A DNA stretch of 11,342 nucleotides from NCBI GenBank assembly GCA_020434495.1, contig JAGRAT010000082.1:1-11342 (forward strand). Reading direction: 5' to 3'. This stretch comes from Bdellovibrionales bacterium (GTDB lineage Bacteria > Bdellovibrionota_C > UBA2361 > RFPC01). Position numbers and translations under genes: made by a program. Positions 133 through 11,342 of this stretch are shown one piece after another. The notes under the pieces were generated by a model. That model made no database searches. It worked only from the letters and a program-made list of their open reading frames with translations, and had not been told where the DNA came from. Within the stretch, counting starts at the first letter, position 1. Each line of letters begins with the position of its first letter.

Positions 133-1794
133 TTGCAACAAAAGCTTGGCACAGTCATTCAATCTCCAGATAAACTCTTTGATATTTCGGCTGCTAACAT
201 GCCGGGCGATGGCATCGGTCGAGAAGTAGCAGCAGAGGCTATTGCTCTGCTCGAACAGGCTGGACGGTTAAGTGGACGACCAATCTTTAATTTTCAGCAT
301 TTCCTTCACCTTGGTGCCCGTTACATGGAAGACACAGGACAGTCTTGGACCCCTGCTGAACGAGATTTTATCGTAAATGAAGCGCAGGCATTCTTTATGA
401 TCGCCCTTGAGCCGGTGAGGAAAGAAGCGGGTTTCCCAGAGGCGAAGCGTTTTCAACATATGGAGGAGATTATCCTCCAAGGTGGACGGGTCGGTAAGGC
501 GACGAACATTAATATGCGCCCGGTTGTTGAGCCACACCCGGATTTTCGTTTGACACATACGCCTCAAACTGGAGGATTTCGGCTGTTCCTTACCAAGGGA
601 GATTCCAGCGAAGAGTTGTTACCAGCAGGCTTCGAAAGTTCAGCCGATGGAAAAACGTGTGTTGTTACGGAGTGTCACCGTCGAGAGGATTATCGTTCTG
701 CTATTCGAAATGGCATTGCCGCTACGCAGGAGGAATCGCTCGGACAGCCAGCAGCAGGAACTTTACTTGGTGGGGTGAGTAAGTGGAATGTTCTTAAGCA
801 CGCACACCGGATGGCCATGGTCGGTGCGTTTGAAGACCTTGCTGAGGAGATCTCTAATGCCGTGGGAGCAGGGTGTAACCCGCGACTCTTGACGGATTCT
901 TTCTGTGAACTCCTCGTACGTGCGCCCGAGAAAGCACCGCGGATACTCGTTTCTGATGCAACTCACGGGGCGTTACTGAGCCCAATGCTTGAGGCTTTGA
1001 ACGCGGGAGCGAGGGAACCACTCACTAAGCAGGTTAACCTTGTCATCGTTCGTGAGAACATTGAAGGCATGTACCGACAGATCGGCGAAGTGATTGAAGA
1101 AGTTGGTGGCCAACCGCAAGCGGTTACGCAGAAAGGAATTTTCACAGAGAGGATGATTCGAGAGGTCGTTGATGCTGGAATAGAGATAGCGATTGATCGA
1201 AGAAGTAGAGGACTAGACCACGGTATAAACGCCGTCACTGTGGTCCTTCCAGAGAGTTGGCCAGTCGCTGCCGAGCTTTGGAAGGAGATCGCGTTAAAGG
1301 TTGGAGAAGAGAAGTACTATCCCGTTAAATTCATGAATGGGTCAGAATTCCTCCTTCGATGCGTTACTGATCCTGACAGCATTGCTCAAGGAGTCTACGT
1401 TGCTTCGAACATGCTGGGGGACATTATAGGAGATGCTGCTGCAGGACTCGTAGGGGGACTGGGAGTGCCGGCTACTCATAATTTCAATTACGCGCGGCAT
1501 GGTTTCCGTCATACTGGAATGACGACCTCAGAACCACTTGGAGGAACAGCTCCTGATATAGCCGGGAAGGGTATTGCAAATCCGATAGCCGCGTTGCTGA
1601 CAGCTGGTGCAATGCTTCGCTATTACGGACATCCCGAACTTGAAGATAATTTGCTACGGGCAATTCATGATGTCACCGAGAGAAGCCCTGAACTCCGTAC
1701 TCCAGACATTGGTGGCCCTTCTCGGGATACCGCAACAAAGGAGTTTGGATCGGCTATTCGCAAGAGATTTGCTGAGATTACCAACGGCAGGTAG
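133..1794 (+). CDS. Isocitrate/isopropylmalate dehydrogenase family protein (beta-decarboxylating dehydrogenase fold) with a large internal insertion. The start is either TTG at 133 or ATG at 199.
   Basis: N-terminal dinucleotide-fold motif ANMPGDGIGREV (compare LeuB AVLPGDGIGPEV). Central VRENIEGMY (compare IDH IVRENTEGEY and LeuB VRELTGGIY). C-terminal NMLGDIIGDAAAGLVGGLGVPAT...GGTAPDIAGKGIANPIAALLTAGAMLRY almost colinear with LeuB NLFGDILSDE...[28 protein letters not shown]. The ORF is 553 aa against roughly 350-420 aa for the family. GGGAAGG lies 5 nt upstream of TTG 133. Confidence 0.8.
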   Translation: MQQKLGTVIQSPDKLFDISAANMPGDGIGREVAAEAIALLEQAGRLSGRPIFNFQHFLHLGARYMEDTGQSWTPAERDFIVNEAQAFFMIALEPVRKEAGFPEAKRFQHMEEIILQGGRVGKATNINMRPVVEPHPDFRLTHTPQTGGFRLFLTKGDSSEELLPAGFESSADGKTCVVTECHRREDYRSAIRNGIAATQEESLGQPAAGTLLGGVSKWNVLKHAHRMAMVGAFEDLAEEISNAVGAGCNPRLLTDSFCELLVRAPEKAPRILVSDATHGALLSPMLEALNAGAREPLTKQVNLVIVRENIEGMYRQIGEVIEEVGGQPQAVTQKGIFTERMIREVVDAGIEIAIDRRSRGLDHGINAVTVVLPESWPVAAELWKEIALKVGEEKYYPVKFMNGSEFLLRCVTDPDSIAQGVYVASNMLGDIIGDAAAGLVGGLGVPATHNFNYARHGFRHTGMTTSEPLGGTAPDIAGKGIANPIAALLTAGAMLRYYGHPELEDNLLRAIHDVTERSPELRTPDIGGPSRDTATKEFGSAIRKRFAEITNGR

Positions 1795-1814: not shown

Positions 1815-1846
1815 CAGCGGGAAAATGGAGCGCCCACATTTTTTTT
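1815..1846 (+). terminator. Possible weak intrinsic terminator or T-tract downstream of the dehydrogenase-family gene.
   Basis: Run of 8 T (1839-1846) preceded by GC-rich CAGCGGGAAAATGGAGCGCCCACA, which has only imperfect stem potential. The T-tract is clear; the hairpin is weak. Confidence 0.25.
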
Positions 1847-1910
1847 GCTTAACAAATTTAGTTCTTTATCCTTTTGCCTCGGAGATCGGGCAAAAGAAGG
1901 GGATGTCTTC

Positions 1911-4553
1911 ATGCGGCAAGCTACAGAGGTGCATCGAGCGTCACCTGAAGTTGATCAATACGACAAACTTGAATCCGAGGGCTTTTCCTCCAAACGTTCG
2001 CTTGGCCTCGGAAAACTCGCCAGTCTATTTGCTGCCTTTGTCCTTAGTACATCATTAGGGTCTGAAATTGGAGCACAAAATCGACCGGAGCGCCCAGCTT
2101 CGTCACCGTCAGAAAATTTGCCGCCAATTCCTAAAAACTACAATCCCGAGAGTGAAGCTGGAGCAAGAGCGTTTCTCGCACACCACGGTGTGAAACCAGA
2201 AGACTTGAAGATACTCCCGACCGAGGATGCTAGTGGAAATATCTCCTTCTCAGTAGTGGTTAAGGAAAAGAGAGAGTTCGTTTCCTTTTCGGAAAAAGTA
2301 GATTCCAAGAAGTGGGATTTGCGCGGCGGTTCTGCCATCGCGCTGAAACCCGGCGCTGATGCTTCAGAGTGGTATGCGGATATTCAAAATAACAACGGCG
2401 TGCGAAGGACAGTTCCCTTTGAGGAGCTAAAGGATCGGTTCGACCGGTCTCGCTTCTTTGTCTCGATTGAACTGTTCGGGCGTGATAGTGAGGGAGTGCA
2501 ATTCTATATCGGAACAGGTGTGCTTAAACCGCAACAGTTCACAGTTCGGGAGTTGTCCCGTTTGAAGGAAGAGAAGTCAGAGGCAGAGACTCCTGCTCGA
2601 GAACAGGTTGATACAGAAAAACAAGAACCGAATGCGACTCTAAAGTATGTCTGGCCAGGGTTAGCGCATGTTTGGGTAGGGCATGGAGAAGATAAAGTTA
2701 CCCAAGAAGAGCTAAGAGCTGAGGTAGAAGATCAACGGAACTCTCTTTGGAACGGGCGGCAAGTTTCTCTGCAAGCTGCTCGAAATGAAGTAGTGGCATT
2801 CAATCTTGTCCTTGAAGCGCCAGAAGGAGTGGCCAAAGATGTCACTGTTGAACTTCCAAAGCTCCAGAATAAAGCTCGTAAATACACCATCGATTCTAGA
2901 GAAACGAAGGGGGATGGGCTCTTTGATTACAGAAACCGTCCTATAGAACTCTTCGTCGTTGATTACCTTGAAATTAAAGGATTGAGTCGCGTTGGATGGG
3001 AAACCTACGATGAACGCCACATTCCAGAGCGTATGCGACGGCCATATTCCGGGGAAGGGTTCGGGGCAGGCAGTTGGAGTGATCGGCCAGATGCGAATCG
3101 GCACTATCCAGATATCGCCGTCCCGATTGAGGCAAAAGGTAAATTTTCTATCCAACCCGGTGCTAGTCAAAGTGTGTGGGTTGACGTATTCGTTCCCGTC
3201 GATGCTCCCTCTGGAAAGTACCAAGGAGAGATAGAGGTTCGTGAGAACGGGAAGCAATGGAAGAAAATTCCAGTTGAGCTTACCGTAATGGACTTCACCC
3301 TCCCGTTAGAACCCGCGGTGAATACTGTCATTCATATCGGGCAAGGCGAGGTAAAGCGACATCTTGGGATTCAAGAACCATCCACTGATAAAGAGTGGGA
3401 TCAGGCAAGAGAGCTTCGTGATAAATACTTTCAGATGCTGCACCGCCATGGCCTGATGGGAATTGGAGATGATGCTAGGGCTTGGGCAAGTGGAGGAGGG
3501 CACCCAAGTGAAGATTGGATCCCTCGGCTTTCCGGAGATCTCTTTACTCCGCGCCATCACTATGAAGGGCTTGGCCAAGGGGTGCCGAATGACGTCTATT
3601 CCGTAGGAACCTACGGCACATGGAATTGGAAGAATTTCGATCTCAGTACCCCAGCTGGTGTGGAGCAGGCTCGGTCCGCGATGTGGAAGCGAACCGATGA
3701 GTGGATGAAATGGTTTGCAAAATATGCCCCTGATGCTGAGGTGTTTCTCTACCTGGCTGATGAAAGTGATGATTTCACCTCTCTTGAAAGCTGGGCCAGG
3801 TTTATGAATGAGAATCCGGGTATCGGCAGGAGTATGAAATCATTTGCTACTATCTCGCTTCCCGATGCTCAACATCACGTGCCAGGGTTGGACATTGCTG
3901 CTACCCAGGCCGGTGCAGCTGGCATCCTCGATGAATGGATGGAGGCAGCGAGCTATTTTCGCGATCATCCCGAAAAAGAGCTTTACTATTACAATGGAGT
4001 ACGTCCACGCTCGGGAACTCTTTTGACAGAGGATGATGGGGTCTCTCCTCGAATGATTCCGCTTGTCGTTGAGAGAATGGCTCTCGATGGTTGGTTCTAT
4101 TGGGAATCAACTTACTACAACAACTATCAAGGCGGGACCGGTGAAACGAATGTCTTCGAACAGGCGCAGACCTTTGGAGGCAATAGCGCAGACAATGGAG
4201 AGCTCGGCCGGAACGGCTGGAACTACTCAAATGGGGACGGTGTACTTTTTTACCCTGGAACAGACACGGTGTTCCCTGAGGAGTCCCTTGGACTTCCTGG
4301 ACCCATCGCAAGCATACGACTGAAGTTGCTCCGTAGAGGCATGCTTGATGCTGCTTACGTCAAGCTCGCTGAAGAAAAAGATCCAAAGGCGACAGCAGAT
4401 ATTCTAAGGACTCTCTTGCCCAAGGTGCTATGGGAAATGGGAGTTTCGGATCAAGAGGACCCCACTTGGCTGCGGTCCGATATCTCTTGGTCTAATGACC
4501 CAGAGGTTTGGGAGGACGCTAGGAAAAAGTTGGCAAAGATAATCACTCGATAG
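1911..4553 (+). CDS. Secreted or membrane-anchored DUF4091-like protein, a putative GH123-type glycoside hydrolase. The ORF-track frame opens at TTG 1845; ATG 1911 is preferred.
   Basis: Long ORF with the RBS-like GAAGGGG 7 nt upstream of ATG 1911. Hydrophobic signal-like segment LGKLASLFAAFVLSTSLGSEIGA. C-terminal half has WFYWESTYYNNYQGG...NGWNYSNGDGVLFYPG and an adjacent Asp-Glu in FLYLADESDDF, reminiscent of DUF4091/GH123-like enzymes. The family assignment rests on motif recall, not a search. Confidence 0.55.
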   Translation: MRQATEVHRASPEVDQYDKLESEGFSSKRSLGLGKLASLFAAFVLSTSLGSEIGAQNRPERPASSPSENLPPIPKNYNPESEAGARAFLAHHGVKPEDLKILPTEDASGNISFSVVVKEKREFVSFSEKVDSKKWDLRGGSAIALKPGADASEWYADIQNNNGVRRTVPFEELKDRFDRSRFFVSIELFGRDSEGVQFYIGTGVLKPQQFTVRELSRLKEEKSEAETPAREQVDTEKQEPNATLKYVWPGLAHVWVGHGEDKVTQEELRAEVEDQRNSLWNGRQVSLQAARNEVVAFNLVLEAPEGVAKDVTVELPKLQNKARKYTIDSRETKGDGLFDYRNRPIELFVVDYLEIKGLSRVGWETYDERHIPERMRRPYSGEGFGAGSWSDRPDANRHYPDIAVPIEAKGKFSIQPGASQSVWVDVFVPVDAPSGKYQGEIEVRENGKQWKKIPVELTVMDFTLPLEPAVNTVIHIGQGEVKRHLGIQEPSTDKEWDQARELRDKYFQMLHRHGLMGIGDDARAWASGGGHPSEDWIPRLSGDLFTPRHHYEGLGQGVPNDVYSVGTYGTWNWKNFDLSTPAGVEQARSAMWKRTDEWMKWFAKYAPDAEVFLYLADESDDFTSLESWARFMNENPGIGRSMKSFATISLPDAQHHVPGLDIAATQAGAAGILDEWMEAASYFRDHPEKELYYYNGVRPRSGTLLTEDDGVSPRMIPLVVERMALDGWFYWESTYYNNYQGGTGETNVFEQAQTFGGNSADNGELGRNGWNYSNGDGVLFYPGTDTVFPEESLGLPGPIASIRLKLLRRGMLDAAYVKLAEEKDPKATADILRTLLPKVLWEMGVSDQEDPTWLRSDISWSNDPEVWEDARKKLAKIITR

Positions 4554-4774: not shown

Positions 4775-6682
4775 ATGACTTTACGGACAGCAAAGCGAGA
4801 ACCCTTTCACGAGTTGCCACTCAGCGATTTCGTTCAATTGGTAGCTCCGAAAAGCAAGGACTATCAGGGACCAAACAGTTTTCTCATCCCAGGTACCGAG
4901 CGAAAGGTCTCCATTCGAGAGATTGCTAATGATCCATTGCGCATCACAAAGACACCGAACCTGAAAGTAGCCTATGCGCAGGTGAAAACAGAGCCTGGAG
5001 CATTTGAGGAGAATCTCCGTGTGCATACCGAGGCTATGGCGAGGGCGCACGAGAGGGGGGCACATCTGCTACAGTTTCCCGAGATGTCTTTGCCGCATTA
5101 CTGTTCTCTAGATCTTTTGCTCGATCGAGACTATCTAAAGGCCCAGGAAGCCTGGCTTCAAGAAATAGTTGAGTTCTCAAAGAAAACTCCAGAACTTACT
5201 ACCGCGGTTGGCTATGTTGATGTGGATTGGGAGAGGGAACGAGCGGGCGGGAGGCCATACAATCGGAATGCTCTTGCGATAATTCGTGATGGCGAAGTGC
5301 TGGGTGTCGTTCACAAGAAGCTGCTCCCAAACTACGCTGTTTTCGATGAACACCGATGGTACGAACCAGGGACCGAGACCAAAGTCTTTGAAATCAACGG
5401 CACGAAGGTTGGTTTTCTCATCTGTGAAGACATCTGGGTCAAGGGATACGACGTTAATCCTATCGAGGATCTTGTAAATGCCGGTGCAGAGTTTCTCTCT
5501 CACTCGCAGGCATCACCATTTCATATTGGAAAGAATGCAACGAGAGCAGAGCTTGCTCAGTCCATTACTGATACCTATGGAATTCCCTTCGGCAGTGTGA
5601 ATGCCGTTGGTACCTTTGACGGATACGAGGGAGATCTGCCATTTGATGGACGAGGTATTGTACGTTCTGCAGATGGGCAGTGGCTTGCAATGGGAGCAGC
5701 TTATAACGAAGAGCTATTGCTACTCGATCCGTTCAGAGCAGCCCCAGACAAGATACCTGAACTCATGCCGATGCAGGAGCTCATTCTCTCTGTTGTTGAT
5801 TCGATGCAGAGCTACTTTAGCCGGCTGGATCAGGTAACTGGACAGACGAACTGCGCTGTGGTCGGTAACAGTGGTGGAATTGATTCAGCCGTGATCATTG
5901 CGCTTCTCCACCTAGCGATTGGACCGGACAGAATCCAAGCTATTAGTTTGCCGACAGTGATTAACTCTGAGGAAACAAAAGGTGATGCTCAAGAACTTGC
6001 TCACAATTTTGGTGTATCGTCTCGTGAAGTTTCGATTCAAGAGACATATGACTCCGTTAAGAAGCTGCTTTCTGAGGCGATAGAACTTGATCCGACAACT
6101 GACAATCGGGTTTCTCAGAATGCTCAGGCGCGGCTCAGAACGCTCGTATTGATGGCGTATTCTCAAGCGTTGGGTGGTGTGATGATTAACACCAGTAACA
6201 AGACTGAGCGCTTTACTAACAATTTTACTATCTATGCCGATTCGTCAGGGGCGTTCGGTCCAATAGCTGATGTTGATAAGGATAGAGTGTACGAGATGGC
6301 TCGATACCTTAACAAAGTGTTCGAGCAGATGGATGGCAAGCCGCGGATCCCTCAATCGATCATAGACCGAGAAGCGTCGGCTGAGCTCGATTTTCATCAG
6401 GTAGATGCCAATGTGATGGGGGGCAAACCTGAAGAGATCGCTCCTTTCATTCGAACCCTCATTGAGCAGGGACTGAATTCCTTTCCAAGTATGCGAGCAG
6501 CACTTCCTGACTCGGTAACTGATGAACTGATTAAACGTTGGGTTGGATCCATCGGAGCCTCCGAGTGGAAGGGAAGGCAATTGCCTCCAGGTACCCGTGT
6601 TACTCCTGTAGCCGCAGGATTCAATAGAAGAATCCCTATTAATCACCGGTGGAGAGGGCAGTTGCCAGGGGGAGCCGCATAA
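4775..6682 (+). CDS. nadE: Glutamine-dependent NAD(+) synthetase, with an N-terminal carbon-nitrogen hydrolase domain and a C-terminal NAD synthetase PP-loop ATP pyrophosphatase domain.
   Basis: CN-hydrolase signatures: LKVAYAQV...FPEMSL (Glu), VVHKKLLPNYAVFDEHRWYEPG (Lys) and GFLICEDIW (Cys). PP-loop motif VVGNSGGIDSAV followed by the NAD synthetase-like region. ATG start at 4775. About 60 aa precede the CN-hydrolase core. Confidence 0.9.
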   Translation: MTLRTAKREPFHELPLSDFVQLVAPKSKDYQGPNSFLIPGTERKVSIREIANDPLRITKTPNLKVAYAQVKTEPGAFEENLRVHTEAMARAHERGAHLLQFPEMSLPHYCSLDLLLDRDYLKAQEAWLQEIVEFSKKTPELTTAVGYVDVDWERERAGGRPYNRNALAIIRDGEVLGVVHKKLLPNYAVFDEHRWYEPGTETKVFEINGTKVGFLICEDIWVKGYDVNPIEDLVNAGAEFLSHSQASPFHIGKNATRAELAQSITDTYGIPFGSVNAVGTFDGYEGDLPFDGRGIVRSADGQWLAMGAAYNEELLLLDPFRAAPDKIPELMPMQELILSVVDSMQSYFSRLDQVTGQTNCAVVGNSGGIDSAVIIALLHLAIGPDRIQAISLPTVINSEETKGDAQELAHNFGVSSREVSIQETYDSVKKLLSEAIELDPTTDNRVSQNAQARLRTLVLMAYSQALGGVMINTSNKTERFTNNFTIYADSSGAFGPIADVDKDRVYEMARYLNKVFEQMDGKPRIPQSIIDREASAELDFHQVDANVMGGKPEEIAPFIRTLIEQGLNSFPSMRAALPDSVTDELIKRWVGSIGASEWKGRQLPPGTRVTPVAAGFNRRIPINHRWRGQLPGGAA

Positions 6683-6706: not shown

Positions 6707-8278
6707 CTAAGGAGTTCCTATCCAGGCTCGAAGATGTCTACCCCATTCCGATGTGGAGTCTCGAAAAGTGGATGGCAAGTCAACACGAGTTAGAACGAGT
6801 TGTACCGGCAAATGGTTGTAAAGGGTTGCAGTATTGAATCCTGGAGGGAACTGATTGCGTGGATCTCGATAATCGTAAGTCATGATTCGGAACAGTGACT
6901 CGTCAAACACCGGCATCTTTGGTGTTGCTCCCGGTGCTTCCTGATAGGGGCGATCCAATGGAAGAGAACTGCCGTCAATAAATTGAGCTGTTGGCACATC
7001 GCCGTATGATACTGAAGAAAGAGGTTTTGGATACTGTTTCCAGTTATCTCTATCGATCAGATAACGCAGATATCCCCGATCTTCTCCGCACACTCCGTGC
7101 ACTAATTCATGGACGAATGTCCTTCCGATCGCCATGTTCTTTGATGGATCAGGATCGAAAATCTCTATCTCTCCATCGCCGTACCGCAATCCAAAAAGAT
7201 CTGCGCGAATTGTTGGGCATCGATATATGGCGTGAATGTCCTCCGCAAAAAGAATGCGGCCTTTCGGAAGCGCAATTCTGGTCGCCTTCTCGAGATACTT
7301 CTCGCATTGGAGGAGCTCAAACTCAGTCCATTTCCGTTCGTCATTCTTGACACTAACTGAACCGTCCTCATTTCGCCTCAGTCGCTTTTCTTGAAATCTT
7401 GGGTTGAGTGTTGAGCCAACCGCGTCCCAAATTTCCTTCCCTTCTTCGAGTTCGCTATGAACAAACGAAAGTCCAAAATTTCGAAGCATCCTGTCCTTTA
7501 TGACTTCGGCTCTATAGAAGGCTGGAAACTCTTCCATCGGATTTTTCATAGCTGCCATCTCGGTAAGGCAATACGCTCTTGAATACTGTAGAGCTCCGTT
7601 CAATTGTCGCCAAAGATTGGTGCGTTGGAGACTCGAATTTTCCTCTAGCACTTTTTGAATCTCCTGATGTCGCTCCATTAAAGCGCTATACAAGCCGGCA
7701 AGTTCTCGATCCAGAAGGGGACTTGGGCATTCAGGTAAATCATTGAGGTTGGCGAGTTTCGGGAGGAGCTCGGCGCAAACGGCGAGGTGCCTCGCACGAT
7801 GAGAAGAGCTTCCTAGCATCTGTTCTTTGCCAAGGGTCCGAACAACTGTTTCCAATTCGGCTGTATCTTTCGTGTAGAGCAAGATGGCATCGACAAAATC
7901 CCTCGCATCTTCATCGAAGGCTCGTGGGTCTCGATCAATCAGTGGAAAGAACTCTTCTAGAAGTATGCAGCGAGTCTCCAGATCTTGAAGCGCAACTAGG
8001 TAACGCTCGGTTTCGATTTTCTCCATTTTCGAGGAAGCCAAATACTCTTCTGTGACACCGGCTTTTTCTCCGAGAGCGGCTACTGCTTTAAAAACTCGTT
8101 GGAAGGTAAATTCTTCCTTACCTGTATCACGTTCGAAGGCAACAGCGCCTTCTAGATCATTAGCTACTTCACTTCCGGTTTTGGGAGTCGTTGAGCATGC
8201 CGCCAGTGTCAGGGCCAATGCGGCTACCTGCGTGGGTAAATGTTTTCTTAGAGGTTCCACGTCGACTACCCGGACCAT
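6707..8278 (-). CDS. Hypothetical lipoprotein with an HExxH motif, a possible zinc metallopeptidase of an uncharacterised family.
   Basis: ATG start (reverse complement of 8276-8278) with AAGGT about 9 nt upstream on the - strand. N-terminal ...QVAALALTLAACS contains a lipobox (L-A-A-C). Single HExxH in the context GRTFVHELVHGVCGEDRGY near the C-terminal third. No other recognisable family signature. Converges on nadE with a 24-bp gap. Confidence 0.7.
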   Translation of the reverse strand: MVRVVDVEPLRKHLPTQVAALALTLAACSTTPKTGSEVANDLEGAVAFERDTGKEEFTFQRVFKAVAALGEKAGVTEEYLASSKMEKIETERYLVALQDLETRCILLEEFFPLIDRDPRAFDEDARDFVDAILLYTKDTAELETVVRTLGKEQMLGSSSHRARHLAVCAELLPKLANLNDLPECPSPLLDRELAGLYSALMERHQEIQKVLEENSSLQRTNLWRQLNGALQYSRAYCLTEMAAMKNPMEEFPAFYRAEVIKDRMLRNFGLSFVHSELEEGKEIWDAVGSTLNPRFQEKRLRRNEDGSVSVKNDERKWTEFELLQCEKYLEKATRIALPKGRILFAEDIHAIYRCPTIRADLFGLRYGDGEIEIFDPDPSKNMAIGRTFVHELVHGVCGEDRGYLRYLIDRDNWKQYPKPLSSVSYGDVPTAQFIDGSSLPLDRPYQEAPGATPKMPVFDESLFRIMTYDYRDPRNQFPPGFNTATLYNHLPVQLVLTRVDLPSTFRDSTSEWGRHLRAWIGTP

Positions 8279-8328: not shown

Positions 8329-8548
8329 GAAGGGTAAGTACCTGGCGATACTTGGGGAAAAGGTGCAGATAAGGGAAAAAAATTACCTTAAGAAAAATCG
8401 CTTTGTTAGCTTTCTAAACAGCTAGGCCCCGTTGGGCTTGGTCGTGGGATAGGTCAAGTGTTGCCGTCGCTTGGAGCGTCTGCCACTTCACCTGTATCCA
8501 CTGGTTCCCTTACAACCTGACTCGAGTAGAAGGAAAGAGACACACATC

Positions 8549-10702
8549 ATGTCTGAAGTTTTCACGTGGCTCGCCACCAACTGGTGGCTGGTCCTCATCG
8601 GCCTCGTCGCCCTCTGGTACCTCCTGGGCTTCCGGAAGGTCGGATCGGCCGACGTCGGCCTCGTCGAGTACATGATCTCGTTCAAGTCGAACGAGACCGA
8701 ACAGGCGGTGGTCGAGAGCGGTGCGGGCTACCGCATGCAGCTCAAGACCCCGGGTTGGCGCTGGGCGCCATTCCTGGTCGCCAGGATCCGCACCTTCCCG
8801 ATGGTGCAGGTGCCGCCGGGAGAAGTCGGCATCGTCTACGCTCAGATCGGTGAGTCGCTTCCTCAGGGTTTCCGTACTGCAGAGTACCTGCCCGAGATGA
8901 AGGACTTCACCAACCCGCGGACGTTCCTCGAGAAGGGTGGACAGAAGGGCATTCAGCGTCCGGTGCTTCGGCCCGGCGCGGTGCTCCCCATCCACCCGGT
9001 CGCCTTCCTGGTGATCACCTCCGAGAAGGTCTACGGACTTCCGATCGATCCGGCACTCCAAGGCAAGCGGGTCACCCCCGCGAGCTTCGGAGTGAAGCGG
9101 GCCGAGAGCCTGCAGCAGACCATCATCGAACCGAAGGTGGTCGAAGTCGATGACCCGGTGACGGGCCAGCGGGTGAGGCAACACACCGAGATGATCGGTG
9201 TCGTCACCTCGCACGAGGGTCCGCCGATCGACGGTGGTGAGATCGCTGGTCGCCTCGGTGGCTGGCAGGATCTTCAGGAGGCCTACGACGACGACAAGTC
9301 GCCGGAGGCCATCATCGAGCTCCTGCTCACCCCGAAGAACGGCAAGCACGAGAACTACCAAGACTTCCAGCAGTTCATCGCTGCCGGTGGTCGGGTGGGT
9401 CTTCAGCACGACGTGCTGCTGCCTGGTGCCTACAACATCAACCCGATCTGTGCGGTTGTCGAACAGGTTCCGATGCTCACCGTCGAGCAGGGACAGGTGG
9501 CGGTCATCAAGTCGTACGCGGGTCTCCCCACTGCTGATACCAGTGGTGAAGCCTTCAAGTACGGCTCGCTCGTCCGTCCTGGTCACCGCGGGATCTGGAA
9601 CACGGCGCTGACGACTGGTAAGTACGCGATTAACCCGCGGCTCTACCATCCGATCATCGTCCCGACCAGCATCATCAACTTGAACTGGGCGGACGCGACC
9701 TCCAACGCGCACCGACTGGACGCCGACCTGAAGCCGATCGAGGCGAAGTCCAAGGAAGGCTTCGTCTTCATGATCGACCTCGAAGTGCAGATCCACATCA
9801 GTGCGAACAAGGCACCGATGGTGATCAGCATGGTCGGTACCATCGAGAACCTCATCAACGAGGTGCTCCAAGGCGCGGTCGGCAACTACTTCCGTGACAC
9901 CCTGGCCTCGAAGGAAGCTGTCGAGTTCATCGAACAGCGCCAGAAGGTCCAGAAGGATGCGGAAGAGCACATCCGGGCCAAGCTCGCCGACTACCACGTC
10001 GAGACCCCGGGCGTCTACATCCAGGACGTCAAGCTGCCCGCTGACCTCGTCAAGGTGTTGCAGGAGCGAGAGATCGCGAAGCAGCAGAAGGCGACTTACG
10101 CGATGCAGCAGGAGTCCGAGCAGCAGCGTGTCGCAACCGAAGCCGCTCGCGGTGAGGCCGACATGCAGGCAGATCTCGCGCGCTCCAAGGTCGGGATCAC
10201 CATCCAGGCCAACAAGACGGATGCTCGCAAGCTGCAAGCTGCTGGTGATGCCGAGTACGTGACCTTGACCGGACAGGCCAAGGGCGCGGAGGTGCTTGCG
10301 ATCGGAGAAGCGAAGGCCAAGGGCTACAAGGCTCAGGTCGCTGCCCTCGGACGCAACAGCACTACTCTCGTCAACGTGATCACTGCCCTCGGCGAAGCAG
10401 GTCTGGACATCGTTCCGGATGTGCTCGTGAACGGCGGTGGTGAAGGCAACGGTGGTGGCGGCAACATGGCGGTCCTCGGACTCGTCACGAAGCTGCTGAA
10501 CGACCACCGCGACGATGACGACGACGACGGGAAGCCGGAGAAGCGCAAGCAGACCCGACGGACCAGGTCGAACGGCAAGGGTGGAGACGCTTCAGGCGAC
10601 TCTCCCAGGACTGATGCTCTGACCGACGCGCAGACTGATGACGACGACGAGGCCCTCACGGACCCCGACGAAGACACCAGTGGCGAAGAGGAACGCAGCT
10701 GA
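8549..10702 (+). CDS. Flotillin-like SPFH/band-7 family membrane protein with an acidic poly-Asp C-terminal tail, high GC.
   Basis: ATG 8549 preceded by GAAGGAAAGAGA. N-terminal TM helix WWLVLIGLVALWYLLG. SPFH-like start PPGEVGIVYAQ. Canonical SPFH C-terminal block GVYIQDVKLPADLVKVLQEREIAKQQKATYAMQQESEQQRVATEAARGEADMQ. Flotillin-type Ala/Glu/Lys/Gln coiled-coil repeats. C-terminal TTLVNVITALGEAGLDIVPDVLVNGGG resembles the FloT/YqiK C-terminus. Gly-rich linker and DDDDDDG...TDDDDE tail. Strong third-position G/C codon bias. Confidence 0.8.
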   Translation: MSEVFTWLATNWWLVLIGLVALWYLLGFRKVGSADVGLVEYMISFKSNETEQAVVESGAGYRMQLKTPGWRWAPFLVARIRTFPMVQVPPGEVGIVYAQIGESLPQGFRTAEYLPEMKDFTNPRTFLEKGGQKGIQRPVLRPGAVLPIHPVAFLVITSEKVYGLPIDPALQGKRVTPASFGVKRAESLQQTIIEPKVVEVDDPVTGQRVRQHTEMIGVVTSHEGPPIDGGEIAGRLGGWQDLQEAYDDDKSPEAIIELLLTPKNGKHENYQDFQQFIAAGGRVGLQHDVLLPGAYNINPICAVVEQVPMLTVEQGQVAVIKSYAGLPTADTSGEAFKYGSLVRPGHRGIWNTALTTGKYAINPRLYHPIIVPTSIINLNWADATSNAHRLDADLKPIEAKSKEGFVFMIDLEVQIHISANKAPMVISMVGTIENLINEVLQGAVGNYFRDTLASKEAVEFIEQRQKVQKDAEEHIRAKLADYHVETPGVYIQDVKLPADLVKVLQEREIAKQQKATYAMQQESEQQRVATEAARGEADMQADLARSKVGITIQANKTDARKLQAAGDAEYVTLTGQAKGAEVLAIGEAKAKGYKAQVAALGRNSTTLVNVITALGEAGLDIVPDVLVNGGGEGNGGGGNMAVLGLVTKLLNDHRDDDDDDGKPEKRKQTRRTRSNGKGGDASGDSPRTDALTDAQTDDDDEALTDPDEDTSGEEERS

Positions 10703-10718
10703 TCATCTTCCGATGATC
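10701..10718 (+). other. Perfect 7-bp-stem hairpin GATCATC-TTCC-GATGATC overlapping the flotillin stop codon. There is no following T-run, so it is more likely an RNA stability or processing element than an intrinsic terminator.
   Basis: Seen directly: 10701-10707 is the reverse complement of 10712-10718. Loop is TTCC. Confidence 0.4.
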
Positions 10719-11019
10719 GCGCGCTGAGCTGTCAGATTGCAACCGAGGCTGAGGGTGTGCTACGCGCATCTTCGGTCTCGGTCGCTTTGCAGGAATTCTT
10801 ATATGGTTTGCCATATTTTCCTTGCTCCTAGACAGGAACCGATGCGTTCCTACCTAGAAGCAGGGGAAAATGTTAAAGGTACAATATCGTTAACTAGGAT
10901 TTAGAATAGCAAAGCTCGCTTATACCTCACCTAAAAGTCTTTCCTTCTACTCACTTTTTTATTTCCTAGCTACTATCCAATAAGCTCCATTGGGCAGCGA
11001 TAAGAAAGGCATAAATTTT

Positions 11020-11342
11020 CTAAAAATCAGTCGCATTCTTTCTCAAGCGATTCTTGTAAACCTGAACTATTTGACTCGCCTGCTCCTTGTTTGCAGCGCA
11101 TGCAAACAACAGGGGATAGAATCCCTCCGAGAGAGGATCGGGAATGATCTTCTTTGAGGCATTTATTACTGCTTGTGCCACCGCAATTCTTTCCTCGTTT
11201 CTCGTGTGAGTCGATACACTAAACAGCGCCGCAGCTACCGCCCCTGCTGCGGCGATTAACGTTGCACGAGGGTCTCCCCCGGTAGCAGTAGCTAGACTTA
11301 TTCCAATCGATCCTGCAGAAGCCATTGCCGACAGAAGAACCT
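11020..11342 (-). CDS. Hypothetical small Ala/Gly-rich hydrophobic protein, possibly 5'-truncated by the window edge; the first in-window ATG is at 11325.
   Basis: Open frame to the window end. ATG at 11323-11325 on the - strand, but the frame stays open upstream. Sequence ...SAMASAGSIGISLATATGGDPRATLIAAAGAVAAALFSV... looks membrane-like. Host-like composition. No family recognised. Confidence 0.4.
   Translation of the reverse strand, partial: VLLSAMASAGSIGISLATATGGDPRATLIAAAGAVAAALFSVSTHTRNEERIAVAQAVINASKKIIPDPLSEGFYPLLFACAANKEQASQIVQVYKNRLRKNATDF

Follow-up and report, generated by a model that had tools for sequence, protein, structure and literature searches.

A GC-rich single-gene segment encoding an SPFH/Band 7 membrane-scaffold protein, most likely acquired horizontally, in a genome labelled Bdellovibrionales

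The window, by which we mean the whole stretch of 11,342 nucleotides that was analysed, belongs to a metagenome-assembled genome (MAG) labelled Bdellovibrionales by NCBI, with a GC content of about 49%, and contains a GC-rich segment with a single intact gene coding for a membrane-scaffold protein of the SPFH/Band-7 type (Table 1). The left neighbour, an ORFan, has in its translation an HELVH (HExxH) motif and, close to the N-terminus, a lipobox-like LAAC; no match to it was found in Pfam, NCBIfam or PADLOC, and a search of 5.8 billion proteins yielded no other member of its family. The right neighbour has no family match in Pfam or NCBIfam. A TTG codon at 8471 was considered as the start of the SPFH gene and rejected, because the N-termini of the homologs align at the ATG at 8549, which is thus the true start. 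No sigma-70-like promoter was found upstream of the gene, and the leader region folds no better than its shuffles (z -0.8). For the 3' region (10680-10830), the minimum free energy (MFE) is -67.8 kcal/mol (z -5.65), and none of 200 shuffles was as good. The original prediction, according to which the segment carries its own ribosome-binding site and 3' hairpins and has both junctions in non-coding DNA, is thus borne out, by a Shine-Dalgarno-like stretch and by hairpins that are real.

Table 1. Features in and around the GC-rich segment (positions are those of the window)
Feature	Position	Strand	Remarks
Left host neighbour, 523-aa ORFan	6707-8278	-	Divergent from SPFH gene; GC3 0.44
Weak hairpin, 9-bp stem	8421-8442	+	At left composition boundary; from folding
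GC-rich (~60%) non-coding leader, including 5' UTR	8421-8548	+	From 40-nt GC windows
665-aa antisense "shadow" ORF	8510-10507	-	Compositional artefact, no gene; low-complexity translation rich in Arg, Leu, Asp and Val
15-nt perfect inverted repeat, left arm GAGTAGAAGGAAAGA	8524-8538	+	Overlaps Shine-Dalgarno-like stretch
Shine-Dalgarno-like purine-rich stretch GAAGGAAAGAG	8529-8539	+	9 nt before ATG 8549
Intact SPFH/Band-7 membrane-scaffold gene	8549-10702	+	717 aa; NCBI MCB0329350.1
Hairpin, 7 bp (GATCATC-TTCC-GATGATC)	10701-10718	+	Overlaps stop codon; from folding
GC-rich 19-bp hairpin, terminator-like without U-tract	10742-10782	+	GC-rich segment ends at most 15 nt beyond
15-nt perfect inverted repeat, right arm	10938-10952	-	In low-GC DNA
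Right neighbour, 101-aa hypothetical protein	11020-11325	-	Convergent with SPFH gene; host-like GC3 0.45

The SPFH protein is laid out, as predicted, as an N-terminal membrane helix, a beta-rich region, the SPFH domain, a helix of about 100 residues and a disordered tail of acidic and basic residues. By its sequence, it is assigned to the SPFH/Band 7 superfamily: the Pfam Band_7 model (PF01145) matches residues 311-526 (E 4.2e-21; 76.2 bits, cut-off 23.6) over profile positions 2-175 of 176. A hydrophobic stretch, FTWLATNWWLVLIGLVALWYLLGF, occupies residues 5-28, with a helix predicted at residues 2-26, and the AF2 secondary structure places a long C-terminal helix at residues 498-599. The predicted combination of membrane anchor, SPFH domain and long C-terminal coiled-coil helix is the layout of the superfamily, in an AF2 model built from a 22-sequence alignment and of low confidence (pLDDT 54, pTM 0.34; 60-85 in the helix segments). 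More than 200 columns are invariant between the protein and 21 homologs, and every family-invariant column is kept. The product had been described as flotillin-like, a description that holds for the Band_7/SPFH match (E 4e-21) but not beyond it, as no flotillin-specific model was matched: Pfam gives only Band_7 and a sub-threshold Band_7_1, and NCBIfam nothing at E <= 0.01. The sequence thus places the protein outside the strict flotillin family (FloT/YqiK/reggie type). Rhizobium plasmid proteins named "flotillin family protein" by PGAP are 30% identical to it over 86% of the length.

Residues 407-608 are weakly but specifically similar to the SPFH2 and coiled-coil regions of prohibitin (8rrh) and QmcA (8z5g), with E values of 3e-4 to 3e-3; a PDB search with the family profile returned no entry at E <= 1e-3. 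Like prohibitin and QmcA, the protein is predicted to have a long helix after the SPFH domain, but it differs from both in having about 280 extra residues after the membrane helix, ahead of the SPFH domain as Pfam defines it. Solved SPFH scaffolds also include HflK/C and flotillin cages. By analogy with the family, the long C-terminal helix would let the membrane-anchored product build large oligomeric rings or cages at the cytoplasmic membrane, and these would organise membrane microdomains or partner proteins. A component of anti-phage defence was considered and rejected, because neither the SPFH protein nor its neighbours match a PADLOC model.

The segment deviates from its host in base composition, codon usage and oligonucleotide signature. 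In 300-nt windows, GC content is 0.56-0.66 across 8401-10800 and 0.40-0.54 in the rest of the window. Two-state maximum-likelihood segmentation and a maximal-scoring-segment test agree on a segment at 8565-10785 with 62.7% GC, versus 49.0% outside, a step of +13.7 points; the log-likelihood ratio (LLR) of the maximal segment is 83.8 nats, and the highest among 300 null sequences is 11.4. Non-coding DNA is rich in GC as well, from near 8420 on the left (60% in 40-nt windows) and up to about 10795 on the right, so that the limits first proposed, 8421-10795, are reasonable (62-63% GC, as against 49% elsewhere), and the reported jump of about 15 points is upheld by sliding-window GC, segmentation and LLR alike. 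Since the GC-rich tract extends into the non-coding DNA to the left and right of the gene, the segment is a genomic fragment and more than a run of biased codons. The SPFH gene has a GC3 of 0.809, the five other genes all fall within 0.44-0.47, and GC1 and GC2 are similar throughout. The near-exclusive use of G or C at third positions, also claimed before, is confirmed by the near absence of A/T-ending codons (AAG 40/40, AAC 24/24, TTC 17/17, TAC 19/19, ATC 95%), whereas the host genes favour GAT, AAT, ATT, GGA and CCA. Even after normalisation for base composition, the tetranucleotide comparison that the original prediction had proposed gives a foreign signature, with r = 0.42 between the island and the host against r = 0.72 +/- 0.04 (minimum 0.64) for equal-sized chunks of the host. 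The GC3 of the gene suggests a donor genome of roughly 64% GC. The amino-acid composition of the protein (GARP and FYMINK fractions) is the same as in its homologs, and thus adds nothing in favour of a long residence in a high-GC genome.

A native gene that owes its high GC3 to selection (e.g. translational optimisation) or to local mutation bias is hardly credible. The one-sided choice of codons, with AAG, AAC, TTC and TAC used without exception, does resemble that of highly expressed genes, and SPFH genes elsewhere lie slightly above their flanks (+1.4 GC points on average). However, the preferred codons are not those of the host, the normalised tetranucleotide signature deviates as well, the bias extends to the non-coding DNA on either side of the gene, and NadE and the other host genes do not share it. 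Moreover, at 53 homologous loci with both flanks, the gene-minus-flank difference in GC is 0.6 +/- 4.1 points, against +15 and +17 points in the window, and only one of these loci, L083, is comparable. The GC excess is thus an outlier of 3 sigma or greater that the gene family does not explain. Host-relative contigs (NadE 70-76% identical) are homogeneous, with a GC content of 0.48-0.56 in 1-kb windows, the baseline for host heterogeneity comprising some 45 kb from relatives and 9 kb of host sequence. Family baseline and host relatives together sustain the view that the excess is foreign rather than a trait of the family.

The homologs number at least 3899, the best of which are 50-55% identical over 84-98% of the length; among 5.8 billion proteins, none is an SPFH ortholog with more than 55% identity. 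The 119 best matches are all equally far from the protein (50-55%) but share 61-99.9% among themselves, and the donor is therefore unsampled. The matches include the long SPFH proteins (650-700 aa) of soil and sediment metagenomes, P0002-P0120, to which the window protein is 50-55% identical and whose full-length architecture it shares (aligned residues 7-624); identity to the Rhizobium/Ralstonia megaplasmid "flotillin family protein" is 30-31%. Unlike the metagenome clade, of which it is an outlier, the window protein has a unique C-terminal tail of about 90 residues rich in Asp, Arg and Lys. No member of the long-SPFH clade or of the plasmid relatives has been experimentally characterised. 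The nearest homologs are metagenome proteins, unnamed or of acidobacterial or planctomycete context, on contigs of 32-68% GC, and the sparse names among the best matches are "bacterium", Acidobacteria and Ca. Acidoferrum. The actinobacterial style that the original prediction had seen in the codon usage thus finds no support, the nearest homologs being all equally distant, and an actinobacterial donor was rejected; by sequence, the gene has no phylogenetic tie to an identifiable donor lineage. No plasmid matches the SPFH gene at the DNA level; phage and plasmid proteins comprise distant homologs only, and no relatives were found on viral contigs. On the host side, about 13 relatives of the lineage (NadE 54-76% identical) are present in the same database without an SPFH ortholog above 55% identity. 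Metagenome relatives with a NadE 67-76% identical have wholly different neighbourhoods, nadE synteny not being conserved, and a NadE search of genome contigs found relatives at no more than 35% identity.

Could the segment have been joined to the contig by the assembler, coming from another organism of the same metagenome? We regard such an assembly or binning artefact as unlikely. It is true that the MAG contig is short (11.3 kb) and ends 547 bp beyond the island, and that both the host and the SPFH gene are singletons in the databases, so that no independent copy confirms the junctions. The right flank, of those 547 bp, also matches the host signature only marginally, its tetranucleotide correlation with the host (r = 0.34) being at the low end of the expected 0.52 +/- 0.09. 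However, in GC and GC3 this flank resembles the host, and it bears no likeness to the island (r = -0.02); a chimera would therefore need two joins, both intergenic and together cutting out exactly one transcription unit. The DNA on the two sides of the island is equal in GC and GC3, neither junction has a shared repeat, tRNA, rRNA or IS sequence that could seed a de Bruijn mis-join, and a 15-nt inverted repeat ties the 5' UTR of the SPFH gene to the right flank.

In the window there is no tRNA, and no ORF has a recombinase (integrase or transposase) domain. The segment had been called a recently acquired cassette; its foreign composition agrees with this, but a cassette in the sense of a mobile unit finds no support, as a tRNA, a recombinase, an attC-type site and a significant direct repeat are all missing. 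It thus lacks the marks of a mobile genomic island or integrative element of the classical kind. The attC core GTTRRRY is absent between the stop codon and position 11019, and one copy at 8431-8437 is no more than chance would give (23 copies in the window, with 17 +/- 4 expected). The 3' hairpins are perfect GC stems lacking the attC layout, and an integron gene cassette was rejected on both grounds. A reading as a tRNA island was likewise rejected, no tRNA being found in the window, and so was one as a structured RNA. An 8-nt repeat present at both junctions, TCGCTTTG, is not significant (P = 0.057), and this microhomology was rejected as a target duplication.

The 15-nt inverted repeat is the sole perfect one of at least 13 nt in the window, and its arms bracket the SPFH gene. 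A small mobile or invertible unit bounded by these arms, with a recombinase or transposase encoded elsewhere, is quite improbable. The chance of any such non-overlapping repeat is 0.064 for the window as a whole, and 5e-5 for one that has both its arms in the two intergenic regions next to the gene, which speaks for a unit of this kind, as does L083, a second, independent single-gene SPFH island with a comparable GC excess, whose flanks carry paired direct repeats of 14 and 15 nt found nowhere else in its 10-kb locus. Yet the arms miss the composition boundaries, the left by about 100 nt on the inside and the right by about 145 nt on the outside; identity stops sharply beyond the 15 nt, no target duplication flanks the arms, no recombinase is encoded in the window, and none of 121 related loci has the motif. 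Window and L083 moreover have no common architecture, since the repeats of L083 are direct and not inverted. There is a slim chance that short perfect repeats, in the window as in L083, mark out a minimal unit that is mobile or invertible but not autonomous, with the SPFH gene as its cargo. If so, genes for long SPFH scaffolds would pass between distant phyla one at a time, as cassettes, through an as yet undescribed mechanism, with a deeply divergent and unsampled lineage of high GC as the donor.

Horizontal transfer of the SPFH gene, as an event of the ordinary kind, is the most likely explanation. We think it likely that the segment is a real and relatively recent acquisition, as a single transcription unit, from an unsampled bacterium of about 60-65% GC. 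The transferred unit would comprise the GC-rich leader, the ribosome-binding site, the SPFH gene and the terminator-like hairpins, inserted into intergenic DNA of a genome of roughly 49% GC, probably by illegitimate recombination and not through a site-specific element. The foreign composition, the intact and conserved protein, and the absence of close relatives and of mobility genes are observed directly; we infer direction, timing and mechanism of the transfer, as well as function and expression in the host. One point against a recent, unameliorated transfer is that it should have left a donor at more than 55% identity within the 5.8 billion proteins, which contain no such match. Other points on that side are that mobility genes, a tRNA, a significant target duplication and an upstream promoter-like site were not found, that the contig comes from a metagenome bin, and that its right flank is 547 bp long, with a low-end correlation to the host.

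Lateral transfer of SPFH genes is documented, in a survey (Hinderhofer et al., 2009; PMC2636767) and for PaFlo3-9 of P. aeruginosa (PMC13086221). As in those cases, the window has a patchily distributed SPFH-domain membrane protein that is apparently missing in near relatives and was probably acquired, its gene being a non-essential accessory scaffold gene; unlike them, it has a single gene, without an NfeD partner or an operon. Nearly all transfer candidates of the 2009 survey had already been ameliorated, and one showed a modest GC3 deviation (PMC2636767), whereas the deviation is extreme here (GC3 +0.35) and includes the non-coding flanks of the gene. GC-deviant, horizontally acquired regions are known in Bdellovibrio (PMC7137782; see also PMC3539863). 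The host resembles Bdellovibrio in having a GC content in the 43-51% range together with compositionally deviant acquired DNA. The Bdellovibrio regions, however, are at least 15 kb long, mostly of lower GC than the host, and often accompanied by phage or integrase genes, whereas the island is 2.4 kb long, of higher GC, and devoid of a mobility gene. Earlier SPFH surveys inferred frequent lateral transfer but rarely saw its compositional traces; the island would be a clean, unameliorated case of single-gene transfer into a poorly sampled lineage labelled predatory, and it flags a divergent branch among the long SPFH proteins, which form a large and uncharacterised family. It reveals no new mechanism or system, and its practical value lies mainly in annotation and in MAG quality control (contig chimeric or not).

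In the window, and at 2 of the first 3 homolog loci, the SPFH gene has a GH123-like gene nearby. As a functional partner it was rejected as a coincidence, since it occurs at only 3 of 83 loci and the window copy is 22% identical.

The antisense ORF of Table 1 and several out-of-frame ORFs rich in Arg, Ser and Pro are present as claimed, and they result from composition. In the SPFH gene, the codon-aligned antisense frame contains 1 stop, against 11-20 in the host genes, and the shadow ORFs are therefore compositional. The island thus illustrates how antisense ORFs of this kind originate.

The window spans a whole contig (11,342 bp) from a metagenome-assembled genome that NCBI labels 'Bdellovibrionales bacterium', and one of its six genes (see the table) lies in an island of sharply different composition. 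GC content in 300-nt windows is 0.56-0.66 across 8401-10800, as opposed to 0.40-0.54 in the remaining window (the host), and segmentation returns 8565-10785 at 62.7% GC versus 49.0%, with a log-likelihood ratio of 83.8 nats against a maximum of 11.4 in 300 null sequences. The jump in GC content is confirmed and lies far outside the range expected by chance. The limits of 8421-10795 proposed for the island in the original prediction are sound because GC-rich DNA runs past both ends of the SPFH gene into non-coding sequence, reaching from about 8420 up to about 10795. The predicted switch to G/C third positions is likewise borne out: the SPFH gene has a GC3 of 0.81 and the other five genes one of 0.44-0.47, with GC1 and GC2 nearly equal. 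In the SPFH gene AAG, AAC, TTC and TAC are used at 100% and ATC at 95%, A/T-ending codons are nearly absent, and codon preferences run opposite to those of the host. The island also deviates from the host in tetranucleotide usage normalised for base composition (r = 0.42, versus 0.72 +/- 0.04 for host pieces of the same size). A 665-aa antisense ORF and Arg/Ser/Pro-rich ORFs, also noted earlier, are present in the sequence but are artefacts, not genes: avoidance of the sense codons TTA, CTA and TCA leaves 1 stop in the codon-aligned antisense frame, versus 11-20 for the genes of the host.

The GC excess is a property of neither the SPFH gene family nor the host. As a family baseline we used 80 metagenome loci with relatives and three loci obtained via exact look-ups: gene GC exceeds that of the flanks by 1.4 +/- 4.0 points (70 loci), and the smaller gene-flank difference is 0.6 +/- 4.1 points (53 loci flanked by 0.8 kb or more on each side), against +15 and +17 points for the SPFH gene of the window. 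From the family regression of GC3 on flank GC, a GC3 of 0.81 predicts a genome of ~64% GC. In the contigs of the nearest host relatives, whose NAD+ synthetase (NadE) is 70-76% identical, GC varies little between 1-kb windows (0.48-0.56). Sampling of the host lineage is poor: in GTDB contigs representing one genome per species no NadE exceeds 35% identity, whereas identities of up to 76% occur among metagenome relatives. Loci of NadE relatives (L035-L038) have 34-54% GC and share no common gene order around nadE.

That the island was joined to the contig by an assembly artefact, the alternative raised originally, is unlikely. Such a chimera needs two joins, both intergenic and together isolating exactly one gene, no repeat is shared at either junction, and GC and GC3 are equal on both sides of the island. 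The 547-bp right flank is much closer to the host (r 0.34) than to the island (r -0.02), although its match to the host is marginal (0.52 +/- 0.09 expected).

A foreign origin of the island is likely. Among 5.8 billion proteins, the best matches to the SPFH protein are 50-55% identical to it, whereas the 119 best matches are mutually 61-99.9% identical (mean 76%). This places the window protein outside a widespread, slowly evolving clade whose contigs range from 32 to 68% GC. The sparse names and contexts of these matches indicate Acidobacteria and neighbourhoods of planctomycete type (DUF1559, PVC-type microcompartment genes), leaving the proposed Actinobacteria attribution unsupported. Phage, plasmid and viral collections yielded no close relatives. 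Moreover, the same database contains ~13 NadE relatives of the host lineage (54-76% identity) and no comparably close SPFH ortholog, which argues against vertical inheritance. Thus, of the recently acquired cassette originally proposed, composition and the lack of a close ortholog support the foreign origin; mobility is not supported, as the window has no tRNA, its ORFs no recombinase or transposase domain, and the region 3' of the SPFH gene no attC-type core site. No Rfam element was found.

The sole junction repeat, the 8-nt direct repeat TCGCTTTG (8398-8405 and 10782-10789), lies near both composition junctions and is not significant as microhomology or target duplication (P = 0.057). The fragment has the appearance of one complete transcription unit excised between terminator-like hairpins, and illegitimate recombination would be the simplest mechanism of insertion. 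The predicted 3' hairpins are real (z = -5.65); that at the left composition boundary (8421-8442) is weak. Alignment with the N-termini of homologs identifies ATG 8549, preceded by GAAGGAAAGAG, as the start codon; no sigma-70-like promoter was detected upstream of the gene. The 15-mer GAGTAGAAGGAAAGA is the only perfect inverted repeat of at least 13 nt in the contig, and its arms bracket the SPFH gene, as might those of an invertible or mobile unit. A repeat of this kind would arise by chance somewhere in the window with P = 0.064, and with both arms in the two flanking intergenic regions, a placement chosen post hoc, with P ~5e-5. A unit so delimited has a low probability, however, since identity ends abruptly at 15 nt, the arms do not match the GC boundaries and the motif occurs in 0 of 121 fetched loci.

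Features of the window and flanking direct repeats of the comparison locus L083
Feature	Position	Strand	Remarks
Isocitrate/isopropylmalate-dehydrogenase-like protein	133-1794	+	
GH123-like protein	1845-4553	+	
Glutamine-dependent NAD+ synthetase (NadE)	4775-6682		
523-aa ORFan	6707-8278	-	lipobox-like LAAC near N-terminus; HELVH (HExxH) zinc-protease-like motif
GAGTAGAAGGAAAGA left arm	8524-8538	+	5' UTR, overlaps ribosome-binding site
SPFH gene	8549-10702	+	717-aa product
3' hairpin	10701-10718		
3' hairpin	10742-10782		19-bp stem
GAGTAGAAGGAAAGA right arm	10938-10952	-	low-GC DNA downstream of island
101-aa hypothetical protein	11020-11325	-	
L083 direct repeat, perfect 14-mer	2019-2032 / 4421-4434		
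L083 direct repeat, 14/15 15-mer	2162-2176 / 4476-4490		same order as 14-mer

The SPFH gene product (MCB0329350.1; a neighbouring hypothetical protein is KDD70_06790) is an SPFH/Band-7 protein (Pfam PF01145, residues 311-526, E 4e-21). Its similarity to solved SPFH proteins (prohibitin, QmcA) is weak (E 3e-4 to 3e-3), and no flotillin-specific model in Pfam or NCBIfam matched. Residues 7-624 align at 30-31% identity with Rhizobium and Ralstonia megaplasmid proteins, under the PGAP name 'flotillin family protein'. The gene is intact and retains all columns invariant among 21 diverse homologs. An AlphaFold model of low confidence (pLDDT 54) begins with a membrane helix (2-26), followed in turn by a beta-rich region, the SPFH fold, a further helix (498-599) and some 100 disordered tail residues; from its family, the protein is probably a membrane-anchored oligomeric scaffold. 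A full-length long-SPFH homolog (29.6% identity, 87% of the query) is found at 343802-345544 of LR756502.1, a 642-kb uncultured 'megaphage', and shorter SPFH proteins occur in several Vibrio phages.

Elsewhere in the window, the best Pfam match of the dehydrogenase-like protein is limited to residues 294-542 and every NCBIfam equivalog score falls far under its cut-off; either it is a divergent enzyme whose long N-terminal part finds no match, or its TTG start was set too early. The 523-aa ORFan has no homolog among the 5.8 billion proteins and no family match. A GH123-like gene lies near the SPFH gene in the window and also in L039 (11463-12962) and L041 (8445-10109), two among the first three homolog loci, but the association did not hold: only 3 of the 83 loci show it, and the GH123-like copy of the window is just 22% identical.

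Phylogeny and patchy distribution have established that prokaryotic SPFH genes undergo lateral transfer; compositional traces were seen in only one SPFH candidate (Hinderhofer et al., 2009; PMC2636767), and PaFlo3-9 of P. aeruginosa are inferred recent acquisitions (PMC13086221). GC-deviant acquired regions are also known from Bdellovibrio genomes with a GC content of 43-51% (PMC7137782). The island is therefore one more instance, and a particularly clean one, of a known type of event. It is not a new system, and its SPFH gene represents a divergent branch of a family of long SPFH proteins that is uncharacterised. Single-gene SPFH islands occur more than once, in 2 of ~55 loci; the second, independent one is in L083, a 69-kb JGI contig of ~31% GC. 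Its SPFH homolog (CDS 2317-4347; 51% GC, GC3 0.60) is 51% identical to the window protein and 73% to its nearest relative, in locus L108, and the GC excess is confined to coding sequence. The direct repeats CCGGGGTGGGATTC and CACAATAGYGTCACA flank it and are absent elsewhere in the 10-kb locus; no repeat architecture common to L083 and the window island is evident. An HNH-endonuclease-domain gene lies directly downstream of the L083 island. A low-GC patch follows the SPFH gene of locus L076, and in L043, a contig of 55-64% GC, the SPFH homolog is followed directly downstream by a 4-kb low-GC (38-45%) island (7655-11608, - strand), whose single gene codes for an SMC/AAA_23-type ATPase of 1317 aa that looks defence-like.
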